The notes under the pieces were generated by a model. That model did not search any database. It was given only the letters and a program-made list of their open reading frames with translations, and was not told the origin of the DNA. The translations under genes and the position numbers were made by a program. A stretch of 64,000 nt of DNA from Candidatus Helarchaeota archaeon (lineage in GTDB: Archaea > Asgardarchaeota > Lokiarchaeia > Helarchaeales > RDOG01): contig JAHPZH010000002.1 of NCBI GenBank assembly GCA_019058315.1, forward strand, positions 160,001 through 224,000, read 5' to 3'. Shown piece by piece: positions 16,701 to 22,472 of the stretch; within the stretch, counting starts at the first letter, position 1, and each line of letters begins with the position of its first letter.

Positions 16701-17447
16701 TTACAAACCACCAATTCTATGTTTCCATTCATCTATCTTATCAAATAATAAGGCAATTATATCTGGATCCATTTTCATATTTTGTGGATACTTCTTTAAT
16801 TTCCGTGCAAACGTCCCTAGTTCATAGATTGCGGGATGAAACTTGTAGATTCTAACTATTTCATCCCTTACAAATTCCATATAGTCAGCAAATTTTACTG
16901 CAGGGGTTTCAATCTTAGATTTTAATGAGTCTAAAAGATCTAGAACTTCAACTGGAACTGTTTTACCAACTTTTATTGGAATTGGAGCTCGTCTTGAAGG
17001 AGCAGGAATGTCAACACGAGTAACTATCGGCTTTTTAGAGGGTTCAAGAGGCTTTAAGGGCTTTGGGGTGGGCGTAATAACTTTAGCTAAAGGAACTGTT
17101 TTGGCCGGAGATTTAGTAATAGTTCGGATTGAATCTATTTTAGAATCCATAAAATTTTTAATTCTACTCGCTGTGTTCTTCACACCTTCAGAAATATCAT
17201 CCAATTTAGCTGTTATTGCCCCCGTATTTATGCCAGAACCAGGAACTTGTGTCTGAAATATTTCCTGCAACTCATCTAATTTATTACCCATCATATCACT
17301 AAAGTTAAGAAATCCAGAATTAACATCTTTTTTCAGGATTTCTAAGGCAGATGTGTTTCCTTGTATCAAAGTTCTCAATTCTTCAACTGCTCCCACAAGC
17401 TTTTTCATCTGTTCTTCTAATCTTTCAAAAACGGTTGCCATTATCAA
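16701..17447 (-). CDS. coiled-coil / Pro-rich linker / helical C-domain protein
   Basis: Heptad-like N-terminus, PTPKPLKPLEPSKKP linker, SD GGAGG; co-oriented with the Rab gene. Confidence 0.6.
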   Translation of the reverse strand: MIMATVFERLEEQMKKLVGAVEELRTLIQGNTSALEILKKDVNSGFLNFSDMMGNKLDELQEIFQTQVPGSGINTGAITAKLDDISEGVKNTASRIKNFMDSKIDSIRTITKSPAKTVPLAKVITPTPKPLKPLEPSKKPIVTRVDIPAPSRRAPIPIKVGKTVPVEVLDLLDSLKSKIETPAVKFADYMEFVRDEIVRIYKFHPAIYELGTFARKLKKYPQNMKMDPDIIALLFDKIDEWKHRIGGL

Positions 17448-17463
17448 TACCCTCCAATTTATT

Positions 17464-17994
17464 TTAAATGAGTTTTTCTAATTTGATTTTTGCAAGTTTT
17501 GAAAAAGCTTTATCTACATTTTTCCCAGTTTTTGCTGAAGTTTTGAAATAAAATTCAATTTTCAATTCTTTCATTAATGTTTCAATATCAGAATCTGAAA
17601 TAACAATACCATCTTTCAAATCCAATTTGTTTGCCAATAAAGCGATTGGAATATCTTTAAGATATTCACGTAAATCTTTATACCAGTTTGAAACGTGTTG
17701 AAACGCTTCTTTATTTGTAAGGTCGAAAACAATAAATCCTGCATGACTACCTTCATAATAATATCTTCGTATTATTTCAAAACGTTCTTGACCACCAATA
17801 TCCCAAACTGTTAAGACTGCATTCTTTTTATCTTCGGGGAATTCTATCACTTTGACATTAAAATCTGCACCAATAGTATGTTTATATTCATCTTCAAATT
17901 TATCATCTGCGAATCTTCTGATTAAAGACGTTTTTCCTACTGCCGGATCCCCAACAACTACAACCTTTAATTGATATTTTTTTCCTTCACTCAA
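17464..17994 (-). CDS. Rab-like small GTPase
   Basis: GDPAVGKT, TIGADF, WDIGGQERF, YYEG, NKLD, SAKT; no C-terminal Cys. Confidence 0.95.
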   Translation of the reverse strand: MSEGKKYQLKVVVVGDPAVGKTSLIRRFADDKFEDEYKHTIGADFNVKVIEFPEDKKNAVLTVWDIGGQERFEIIRRYYYEGSHAGFIVFDLTNKEAFQHVSNWYKDLREYLKDIPIALLANKLDLKDGIVISDSDIETLMKELKIEFYFKTSAKTGKNVDKAFSKLAKIKLEKLI

Positions 17995-20114: not shown

Positions 20115-20253
20115 TATTATCCAAAATTAAAGTTAATTTCAAAATATATACATGTTATATAGAGACTTATTTCAAATATAATGGACGTACAGCATCGATT
20201 TAATTGAAATTTACCCAAAAAAAAAATAAAAATAAGAGAAAAAGGATGAAGAT

Positions 20254-20556
20254 TTATTCCTTTATCGCCAGAATTAAATCTTCTTTAGTAATAGTCTTTC
20301 TTTTTGCATTCTCGACTATTTTAAGTGCTTTAGTTGTTAAGTCCTTTGCTAAACCTTGCAGATGCTCCATCAAAATCTCAATTGCTGAAGAAGCAACTAG
20401 TTCGGCATCAGCTTTCTCCTTCATTAATCGTCGTAAAGCTGATTTTGTAATAATTCTAGGTTCACCAGTTGCTTTAGGTTTTGCCTTTGCTGGTTCTTTT
20501 TCTGGTTCTTTTTTTGGTTCTTTTTTTGCTGGTTTTTTAGCTTTTGCCAATTTCAT
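20254..20556 (-). CDS. archaeal histone with a Lys/Pro-rich N-terminal tail
   Basis: Histone fold (ITKSALRRLMK...VASSA...AKRKTITKEDLILA). SD GAGGG at about 20558-20562 places the start at 20556 (ATG) or 20550 (TTG), not 20706. Confidence 0.9.
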   Translation of the reverse strand: MKLAKAKKPAKKEPKKEPEKEPAKAKPKATGEPRIITKSALRRLMKEKADAELVASSAIEILMEHLQGLAKDLTTKALKIVENAKRKTITKEDLILAIKE

Positions 20557-20914
20557 TCCCTCAAAAATTATCATATAACTTTTTTTATAATTATAATAAT
20601 AATCAGATATAAAAATAATTACTATATTTTTAAAATATATGTTATGACACATGGATCTTTTTTCTAAATTATTTTTTGTCGAAGTTAGAGTTATAAGATT
20701 AATCAACAGACAAATTTATGAAAAATTTGAAATTTTGCTCTACATATAAAAAATACAAAGCTTTTTTTCCATTAGAAATATATTTCATTAATTTTTTTTA
20801 ATTAATAAAAATTTCAAGAGATTTATTTAAAATTTTATGAAATCTAATTGCTTTTTATTATATTTTTTATAATTTCATTAAACTCCTTATCATCTCTATT
20901 ATTTATTTTCTAAA

Positions 20915-20928
20915 TAAACGCGCGTTTA
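20915..20928. promoter_or_regulatory. perfect 14-bp palindrome TAAACGCGCGTTTA upstream of the histone gene
   Basis: Seen directly inside a roughly 640-bp AT-rich intergenic region; function inferred. Confidence 0.45.
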
Positions 20929-21200: not shown

Positions 21201-22472
21201 TTAGGTTCCTTCATCCCAACTAGTAATATATTTTTCTTGTTCAGGCGTTAAATAATCAATTTCGATGCCCATTGATTTTAGCTTTAAATATGCAACCTTA
21301 TCATCTAATTCTTTTGGGAGCACATAAACATCAGGTTTAAGATTTTTTCCATGTTCTAACATATATTTTGCGCCTAGAGCCTGATCTGAAAAACTCATAT
21401 CCATTACTTCGCTAGGATGCCCTTCTGCAGCAGCCAGATTTACTAATCTTCCTTCAGCTAATAAATAAATTTTTCTACCATCCTTTGTTATATATTCTTC
21501 AACATTAGGTCGGATAATTTTTTTTCCCTTAGACATTGCTTCTAAAGCTGGGATATTAACTTCAACATTAAAATGCCCTGAATTAGCCAATATCGCACCA
21601 GTTTTCATCTTTTTTAAATGTTCTTTATCGATGACATTTTTGTCTCCAGTAGAAGTAACAAATAAATCTCCGACTTCTGATGCTTTTGACATAGGCATTA
21701 CCGAAAAACCATCCATAGCAGCTTGCAGAGCTTTAACTGGATCAACTTCAGTAACAACTACATGTCCACCTAAACCTCTGGCCCTAATAGCAATACCTTT
21801 TGAACAATATCCATAACCCGCAACTACCACTTTTTTACCCGCTATTAATATAGATGTAGCCCTTAAGATTCCATCCATTGTGCTTTGTCCTGTGCCATAT
21901 ACATTATCGAAATTACGTTTTGTTTGAGAATCATTTGCTGCAAGAATTGGATATTTTAATTTTCCATCTTTTGCCATAGCTCTTAGACGAATAACACCAG
22001 TAGTTGTTTCTTCACAACCCGCTACTATATCTTTCAATAATTCAGTTTTTTTTGAATGAATTGTCGAAATTAAATCTGCACCATCATCCAAAGTTATATT
22101 TGGCTTGATTTCCAAAGTTTTGTCTATACAGGAATAATATTCTTCTTTATTTTGACCCCGCCAAGCAAATACTCTCATTCCAGATTTAGCCAAAGCTGCA
22201 GCTACATGATCCTGAGTTGACAATGGATTTGACCCACATAAAGCAATTTCTGCACCACCTGCTTTTAAAGTATTCATCAAACAAGCTGTTTCTTTAGTAA
22301 CATGTAAACAAGCAGCAATTCTCACTCCTTCCAAAGGTTTAGCTGTTTCGAACTCTTTTTTTATTTCTGATAAAACTGGCATATTTTGACTTGACCACTC
22401 AATGGCTAGGTTACCTTCTGTGCTTAAGGAAATATCTTTTACTTCATATTTCGTTGTCATTTTAAAAACCAC
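21201..22472 (-). CDS. ahcY: adenosylhomocysteinase
   Basis: CLHVTKETA, NPLSTQD, EETTTG, FDNVYGTGQS, GRLVNLAAAEGHP. Confidence 0.98.
   Translation of the reverse strand: MVFKMTTKYEVKDISLSTEGNLAIEWSSQNMPVLSEIKKEFETAKPLEGVRIAACLHVTKETACLMNTLKAGGAEIALCGSNPLSTQDHVAAALAKSGMRVFAWRGQNKEEYYSCIDKTLEIKPNITLDDGADLISTIHSKKTELLKDIVAGCEETTTGVIRLRAMAKDGKLKYPILAANDSQTKRNFDNVYGTGQSTMDGILRATSILIAGKKVVVAGYGYCSKGIAIRARGLGGHVVVTEVDPVKALQAAMDGFSVMPMSKASEVGDLFVTSTGDKNVIDKEHLKKMKTGAILANSGHFNVEVNIPALEAMSKGKKIIRPNVEEYITKDGRKIYLLAEGRLVNLAAAEGHPSEVMDMSFSDQALGAKYMLEHGKNLKPDVYVLPKELDDKVAYLKLKSMGIEIDYLTPEQEKYITSWDEGT

Follow-up and report, generated by a model that had tools for sequence, protein, structure and literature searches.

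The minus-strand open reading frame at positions 20254-20556 of the window (the whole stretch of 64,000 nucleotides that was analyzed) encodes a genuine archaeal histone of 98 to 100 amino acids, equipped with a disordered, Lys-rich N-terminal tail of about 30 residues; our translation matches the earlier reading. The combined evidence favors a nucleosomal-type archaeal histone paralog with a disordered and likely modified tail, which polymerizes weakly with itself and takes part in mixed assemblies, and we assign this reading a probability of about 0.8. Tailed Asgard histones bear on the origin of eukaryotic, modification-regulated chromatin, and the gene adds a further well-supported case, from a Helarchaeota-like lineage without a cultured representative. 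The tailed Asgard histone class, its abundance, its modifications, and its correlation with residue His49 have already been published. The first-pass annotation suggested that the tail can be modified and that the four-helix bundle may be altered; both suggestions match existing proposals for sister families and are not new. Alone, the gene raises no new question, and its one mildly novel aspect is that the tail may have arisen separately, again together with loss of the interface His.

A histone of the archaeal nucleosomal type

Pfam assigns residues 40 to 98 to PF00808 (CBFD_NFYB_HMF; E = 3.7e-11, 43.6 bits against a gathering cutoff of 21.4), and the core histone family PF00125 matches as well (E = 1.1e-6). 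When the PDB is searched with phmmer, the archaeal histones HPhA (5e-6) and HMfB (1e-4) score best, followed by H2B and H4 chains at 0.002 to 0.008. A search of 5.8 billion proteins returned 17 homologs, all belonging to PF00808, of which 14 are full-length tailed members; the close homologs were labeled Helarchaeota, Promethearchaeota, or Hodarchaeota by their submitters. Residues K85-R86-K87-T88 and D93, which align to GRKT and D59 of HMfB, are invariant in all 17. From its family membership, the region spanning residues 34 to 100 would be expected to form a handshake dimer that wraps DNA and contacts it through the conserved KRKT motif of loop L2 and the alpha-1 Arg residues. A Foldseek search of the PDB with the AlphaFold2 monomer model gave zero matches at E <= 0.001, and this search is uninformative because in the model alpha-1 and alpha-2 run together as a single long helix.

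PF00808 spans both NF-Y subunits and archaeal histones, and NCBI names one homolog (P0007) an NFYB/HAP3 family subunit, as would suit a histone-fold transcription factor subunit (NF-YB/HAP3-like) and not a chromatin histone. We regard such an identity as very improbable. NCBI assigned that name automatically by family. Among solved structures the closest relatives are archaeal histones and H4; the L2 motif is the archaeal KRKT, the length is that of a single fold, and the protein groups in one clade with archaeal nucleosomal-type paralogs.

The structures of HMfB, HPhA, and HHoB (PDB 1a7w, 1ku5, and 9QV6) share with the window protein the histone fold, the L2 RKT motif, and the Asp59 equivalent; unlike it, they are tail-less, keep His49, Gly16, and the stacking pairs, and form compact hypernucleosomes. 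Eukaryotic H4 and H2B likewise combine a histone fold with a basic, disordered N-terminal tail, and AKRKT is identical to the H4 L2 region. However, there is no tail homology to either, the alpha-C helix of H2B and the tail motifs of H4 are absent, and H4 keeps the His. H4 chains give weak phmmer matches (E = 0.003 to 0.008), and one H2B chain aligns over its full length, tail included (E = 0.002). HPhA and HMfB outscore the H2B chain, which ranks level with H4, and the protein ends right after alpha-3. The EPAK motif, which had been likened to the H2B N terminus, occurs in only 4 of the 14 homologs and, with archaeal HPhA and HMfB as the best solved relatives, is a chance resemblance; as the motif is not conserved, a relationship to H2B through it was rejected. 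The tail resembles those of eukaryotic core histones in composition.

The gene and its start codon

The 100-codon open frame reads MKLAKAKKPAKKEPKKEPEKEPAKAKPKATGEP, then RIITKSALRRLMKEKADAELVASSAIEILMEHLQGLAKDLTTKALKIVENAKRKTITKEDLILAIKE, and offers two candidate start codons, ATG 20556 and TTG 20550; a start at TTG makes the product two residues shorter and leaves the tail unaffected. The two closest orthologous loci match the start-region block TTTTTGAGGGAATGAAATTGGCAAAAG letter for letter. In the locus alignment its GAGGG element is likewise identical in these two, reads AAGGG in the more distant L043 and L044, and also occurs upstream of three further histone genes of the same order (L012, L013, and L016). 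In L043 and L044, an ATG (ATG GCA AAA) aligns with TTG 20550, and their upstream ATG is out of frame. The 51%-identical ortholog from a sister genus (L012, genome G001) has GAGGGATGAATA-TTG with an in-frame TGA just before it and an out-of-frame upstream ATG, which limits its start to the TTG or an adjacent ATA, 4 to 7 nt after GAGGG. A paralog in the same genome as the window (L008) has TTG at the matching start position, its next in-frame start falling within the fold. Two NCBI protein calls begin in the same manner, P0007 with MAKAKKK and P0008 with MAKSKKK.

Conservation of the GAGGG(A)ATGA block, the alignment of an ATG or TTG in the orthologs, and the GAGGG spacing together make TTG 20550 the probable start, rather than ATG 20556, which follows GAGGG by only 1 nt and was judged less likely. 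The resulting 98-residue product would begin MAKAKK, like the rest of the family. The A/T blocks upstream of the gene contain many invariant columns in the alignment of orthologous loci. A promoter and terminator scan with bacterial models, which are not applicable to archaea, returned promoter-like sites at shuffle expectation and zero terminator-like sites. Coordinates of these and the other features are collected in Table 1.

Table 1. Features of the tailed histone gene and its flanks (window coordinates)
Feature	Position	Strand	Details
Oligo-T tracts	20217..20243	-	Directly 3' of the stop codon; probable archaeal termination signal, as judged from sequence
Longest plausible CDS	20254..20556	-	100 aa from ATG 20556; stop TAA 20254-20256
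Probable true CDS	20254-20550	-	98 aa, TTG start
Histone-fold domain, residues 34-100	20257..20457	-	RIITKSALRRLMK...AKRKTITKEDLILAIKE; Pfam, phmmer, pLDDT 76-96
Asn83 codon (AAT)	20308..20310	-	At the HMfB His49 position of the dimer-dimer four-helix bundle; phmmer alignment
Asp50 codon	20407..20409	-	At the HMfB Gly16 position (stacking loop L1), beside a one-residue L1 insertion; alignments
30-aa tail coding region	20458..20547	-	AKAKKPAKKEPKKEPEKEPAKAKPKATGEP; 11 K, 6 P, 5 E, 6 A; net charge +6; pI 9.9
12-nt tandem repeat, ~3.3 copies	20486..20528	-	Tandem Repeats Finder; encodes KKEP-KKEP-EKEP
Probable start codon TTG	20548..20550	-	Product MAKAKKPAKK...; comparison with orthologous loci
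GAGGG Shine-Dalgarno-like block	20558..20562	-	7 nt upstream of TTG, 1 nt upstream of ATG 20556
Conserved A/T blocks	20579..20616	-	TTTTTATATCT ... TTATAATTATAAAAAAAG; upstream of the gene; candidate TATA/BRE promoter elements

The Lys-rich tail

A recount bears out the tail string, its length of 30 residues, and its 11 Lys exactly as first described, giving a Lys fraction of 37%. The window has a GC content of 29.7%, and background Lys in its 47 other open reading frames of >=150 aa is 9.9%. Not one of the 13,940 thirty-residue windows in these frames reaches 11 Lys plus 6 Pro, and the Lys/Pro content of the tail thus exceeds what AT richness would lead one to expect.

At this GC content an A-rich leader would read as poly-Lys, and either ATG 20556 or TTG 20550 could be the exact start, which leaves room for the tail to be an untranslated 5' leader that is open by chance, the protein starting further downstream. 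The chance of this is negligible. A start after the tail, which the first-pass annotation had named as an outcome that would undo its proposal, is ruled out by the reading frame: the next in-frame ATG, GTG, or TTG after codon 3 is Met45, within helix alpha-1, so that an intact fold cannot be made without the tail. An in-frame tail of 25 to 34 residues, rich in K, P, and A (and E), is kept in the 14 homologs despite indels, the Shine-Dalgarno-like block lies upstream of the tail, and the K plus P content is unmatched in the control windows. By the arrangement of start codons, then, the tail must be translated.

Identity to the 14 tailed homologs is about 40 to 73% in the tail and 75 to 97% in the fold; what appears to be conserved in the tail is composition and length, not sequence. 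AlphaFold2, run with the homolog alignment, gives pLDDT values of <50 for residues 1 to 27 and 76 to 96 for the fold. The model therefore predicts a disordered stretch of about 30 residues, and the tail is genuine and conserved.

A contig from a sediment metatranscriptome library (run X19), <90% identical to the window, carries an in-frame 12-nt deletion at 20522, within the tail repeat. Natural tail-length variants thus exist, and as the deletion falls exactly in the repeat, slippage probably drives the variation in length. Logan contigs from two metatranscriptome libraries of relatives (two studies) cover 20328-20527 (95 to 99% identity) and 20333-20568 (<90%), spanning the tail-coding region. 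These contigs come from relatives, may include DNA carry-over, and are silent on transcription start, strand, and expression level, and the stretches that they leave uncovered are uninformative; they are a weak hint that the tail is expressed.

Substitutions at the assembly interfaces

The first-pass annotation had noted a replacement of the His in the HAGRKT motif. In agreement, phmmer aligns ...venakrkt... with ...arhagrkt... of HMfB (PDB 1a7w), which places Asn83 at the His49 position. Asn occupies this position in all 14 members of the tailed subfamily and in L012, whereas the short-tailed sister paralogs retain His. At the four-helix-bundle positions 46, 49, 59, and 62, the protein has I, N, D, and L, where HMfB has L46, H49, D59, and L62. 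The HMfB stacking pairs K30-E61, E34-R65, and R48-D14 correspond to E64-I95, G68-K99, and E82-E47, and none of the three is kept. The L1 insertion is common to the same-genome paralogs L003 and L004 and to P0018 to P0020, and none of the HLoA-like, HLoB-like, and HMf-like sequences compared has it. As the insertion and, mostly, the Asp at the Gly16 position are common to the short-tailed sisters, they are not specific to the tailed form.

Residues L46, H49, D59, and L62 together with G16 serve as criteria for hypernucleosome formation (Henneman 2018, PMC6136690), and H49N in the tailed HA of Heimdall LC_3 is predicted to weaken the interface (PMC6136690). In the solved HHoB structure, H51 and D61 sit in the dimer-dimer interface (10.1101/2025.05.24.653377). 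Applied here, the Henneman 2018 criteria rate the first as weakened ('+/-'; His49 to Asn), and the other two fail. The proposal of an altered four-helix bundle is thus in keeping with published sequence criteria, given I/N/D/L and the Asp at Gly16. From His49 to Asn, Gly16 to Asp with the extra L1 residue, and the loss of all three stacking pairs, we infer that the protein would polymerize poorly into compact homotypic hypernucleosomes. The Asn may still hydrogen-bond to the retained Asp59 equivalent, and since I46, D59, and L62 fit a four-helix bundle, tetramerization may be intact.

Capstone paralogs have been proposed in Methanobacteriales. By extension, H49N and G16D could bar homotypic growth altogether and make this an obligately heteromeric histone, which terminates hypernucleosomes or takes defined positions in them. 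Several observations are in accord with this: Asn49 is found in every member as against His in the short-tailed sister paralogs, Asp at the G16 position is joined by the L1 insertion, and nine other paralogs are available as partners. Further, the best AlphaFold3 models in the 2026 preprint combine six untailed with two tailed subunits (10.64898/2026.07.02.735847), and tailed histones tend towards altered interfaces (Henneman 2018, PMC6136690). However, I46, D59, and L62 are retained, and G16D with the L1 insertion also occurs in tail-less sisters and is not specific to the tailed form; a strict capstone is therefore rather unlikely. Under the preferred reading of a weakly polymerizing paralog, the protein would enter mixed assemblies with the nine tail-less paralogs and loosen or delimit them.

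Relation to known tailed histones

Lys-rich, eukaryote-like tails have been described on the histones of Heimdall LC_3, along with H49N in the tailed HA (Henneman et al. 2018, PMC6136690), and in most tailed histones the dimer-dimer or stacking interface is changed as well (Henneman 2018, PMC6136690). Lys-rich N-terminal tails are frequent on Asgard histones, above all in Lokiarchaeota and Heimdallarchaeota (Grau-Bove 2022, Schwab 2024; PMC11390915, 10.1101/2021.11.30.470311). That tailed archaeal histones are reported only sporadically, as the first reading had it, is at odds with this literature, in which Asgard histones are 'often' tailed (PMC11390915; 10.1101/2021.11.30.470311).

The tailed families HLoB (Loki) and HMpB (Hod) were defined in a July 2026 preprint by Cho et al. 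(10.64898/2026.07.02.735847). Both are abundant and co-localize with DNA; tandem mass spectrometry of cultured Loki and Hod strains found Lys methylation and a single instance of acetylation in their tails, and the writer and eraser enzymes LoHAT2 and LoSIR2 are active on tail peptides in vitro (10.64898/2026.07.02.735847). The tails of this class are disordered, about 16 to 32 residues long, and >30% Lys, with a pI of about 10.5; the His49 position is occupied by Asp in HLoB.1 to HLoB.3, which have MAKKK... tails and RRLMK in alpha-1 (Supplementary Table 2), by Asn in HMpB.1, and by Gln in HMpB.2 (10.64898/2026.07.02.735847). By these measures the tail of the window protein belongs with the class, being 30 residues long and 37% Lys with pLDDT <50; its pI of 9.9 is somewhat lower than the HLoB value of about 10.5 owing to five Glu.

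Compared with HLoB.1 to HLoB.3 of Ca. Lokiarchaeum ossiferum B35, the protein has the same single-fold architecture, a similar size (88 to 100 aa), and an origin in the same archaeal class. Both also have a disordered tail of 20 to 35 residues that starts MAK(K/A)K and holds >30% Lys with Pro and Ala, RRLMK in alpha-1, KRK in L2, and loss of the His49 equivalent. In contrast, fold identity is only about 40%; in HLoB, position 49 is Asp or Glu instead of Asn, Leu62 is lost, Gly16 is retained, and loop L1 has no insertion. HLoB tails also lack acidic residues. The HA of LC_3 and HMpB.1 of Ca. Margulisarchaeum peptidiphilum share the Lys-rich tail of about 25 to 30 residues and H49N. However, they come from another Asgard order, their fold is HMf-like (ANAKVE.LIR...GRKT or NRRT), and the Arg cluster of their tail, KKRRTSRSR, has no counterpart here. 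The tail of LC_3 HA and HMpB.1 and that of the present protein very probably arose independently.

Histone complement of the genome

The genome is a sediment metagenome-assembled genome of 5.8 Mb in 12 contigs, 94% complete, from an AT-rich Asgard archaeon of the same class as Lokiarchaeum-type genomes. It contains 10 PF00808 loci, among which the tailed gene is the sole long-tailed one and the sole one with Asn at position 49. The others comprise one HMf-like gene, five of the MAKKRYFAWSP type, which match HLoA of Ca. Lokiarchaeum ossiferum, two short-tailed genes, and one divergent gene. The short-tailed L003 and L004 (MAKKAKVITKTALRRLMK...KHAKRKT) are nearly identical and are the closest paralogs of the tailed gene. 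An HLoB-type gene (IAKAPIRRLMK) was not found among the 10 loci. In L012 (G001:C112:128378-129043), the tailed Asn49 histone is convergent to a short-tailed, His-bearing sister paralog about 190 bp away.

Phylogeny and origin of the tail

A maximum likelihood tree was generated from 66 fold columns of the homologs, 50%-identity representatives drawn from a scan of 1.8 billion proteins, and the paralogs of the genome. The 14-member tailed subfamily is recovered with support of 97/98 and is nested in a clade (95/97) with short-tailed, His-bearing ITKTALRRLMK paralogs. HLoB-type representatives (P0038, P0047, P0021, and others) form a separate clade (96/69). A tree that forces the tailed subfamily and the HLoB type into a joint clade is not rejected by the AU test (p = 0.081), on 66 columns in which the deeper branches are weak; the grouping with the short-tailed paralogs is independently backed by their common L1 insertion. 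Among 40 related species-representative genomes, the tailed Asn49 ortholog is found only in the same-family genome G001. Genomes of the same order have short-tailed sisters, and other genomes of the class have HLoA-like and HLoB-like genes.

On these relationships the tail may have an origin separate from that of HLoB. Tentatively, and with the odds somewhat against it, the subfamily could be a third long-tailed Asgard lineage beside HLoB (Lokiarchaeales) and HMpB (Hodarchaeales), derived from the short-tailed, His-bearing clade with the L1 insertion. The assemblies of the homologs are absent from the supplementary tables of the 2026 preprint (10.64898/2026.07.02.735847). Were there such a third lineage, Asgard archaea would have acquired Lys-rich tails on three or more occasions, always with loss of the His of the four-helix bundle, which would amount to a convergent route to tail-bearing, weakly polymerizing histones, comparable to the step from hypernucleosome to defined nucleosome. 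Loki HLoB and Hodarchaeal HA/HMpB likewise combine a Lys-rich tail with an interface that has lost its His, and if the tail studied here arose separately, this recurrence would suggest a functional coupling of the tail with looser histone polymerization.

Possible roles of the tail

Residues 2 to 33 are predicted to project from the particle as a disordered tail of Lys, Pro, Glu, and Ala. By analogy with HLoB and HMpB, the tail would most likely contact DNA and be a substrate for lysine methylation and acetylation; a modifiable tail is thus plausible. Its net charge of only +6 with five Glu counts against a strongly basic tail and makes it less basic than HLoB tails. Candidate modification enzymes were sought in the 94% complete genome, which yielded three SIR2 loci, in favor of a modified tail, and, as points against it, zero SET domain matches and for MOZ_SAS only a sub-threshold match.

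The lack of a SET or clear MOZ_SAS enzyme in that genome would also be in line with a tail that is a DNA-binding, charge-neutralizing extension, comparable to linker histone or HU tails, whose PAKK/KKPAKK repeats raise affinity or bridge DNA in cis or in trans, with any modification incidental. The tail is a K/P/A-rich region of low complexity whose length varies through the 12-nt repeat, its composition is conserved over its sequence (about 40 to 73% identity as against 75 to 97% in the fold), and stabilization by DNA contacts has been proposed as an alternative tail role (Henneman 2018, PMC6136690). Such an extension is compatible with our preferred explanation and not exclusive of it. That modification is merely incidental seems doubtful, as related tail classes are modified at specific lysines, with modified peptides enriched (10.64898/2026.07.02.735847), and the five tail Glu lower the charge available for DNA binding. 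We continue to favor a tail that both touches DNA and is modified.

Genomic neighborhood

The neighborhood is kept in four orthologous loci (L041 to L044), whose histones are 74 to 90% identical. Gene order runs from an AsnC-type regulator through adenosylhomocysteinase, the histone, a radical-SAM/B12 protein or arginase, and 4HFCP synthase to an Arf/Ras-like GTPase. The spacer between adenosylhomocysteinase and the histone measures about 480 to 650 bp across the window and the four loci, and a promoter of its own is therefore probable for the histone gene.

The adenosylhomocysteinase gene (21201-22472, minus strand) lies directly upstream on the same strand, and does so likewise in L041 to L044, down to 74% histone identity. 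Adenosylhomocysteinase removes the by-product that SAM-dependent methylation leaves. Its position next to the histone gene may reflect no more than synteny among relatives. The Arf/Ras/Roc-type small GTPase (17464-17994, minus strand) is followed by a gene without Pfam matches (16701-17447, minus strand), in the same neighborhood as in L041 to L043. The extremely AT-rich spacer upstream of the histone holds a perfect palindrome, TAAACGCGCGTTTA, at 20915-20928, about 365 nt upstream of the histone start; an exact match to its core, AACGCGCGTT, was not found in L041, L043, or L044 and is present at the matching distance in L042 (3626-3635).
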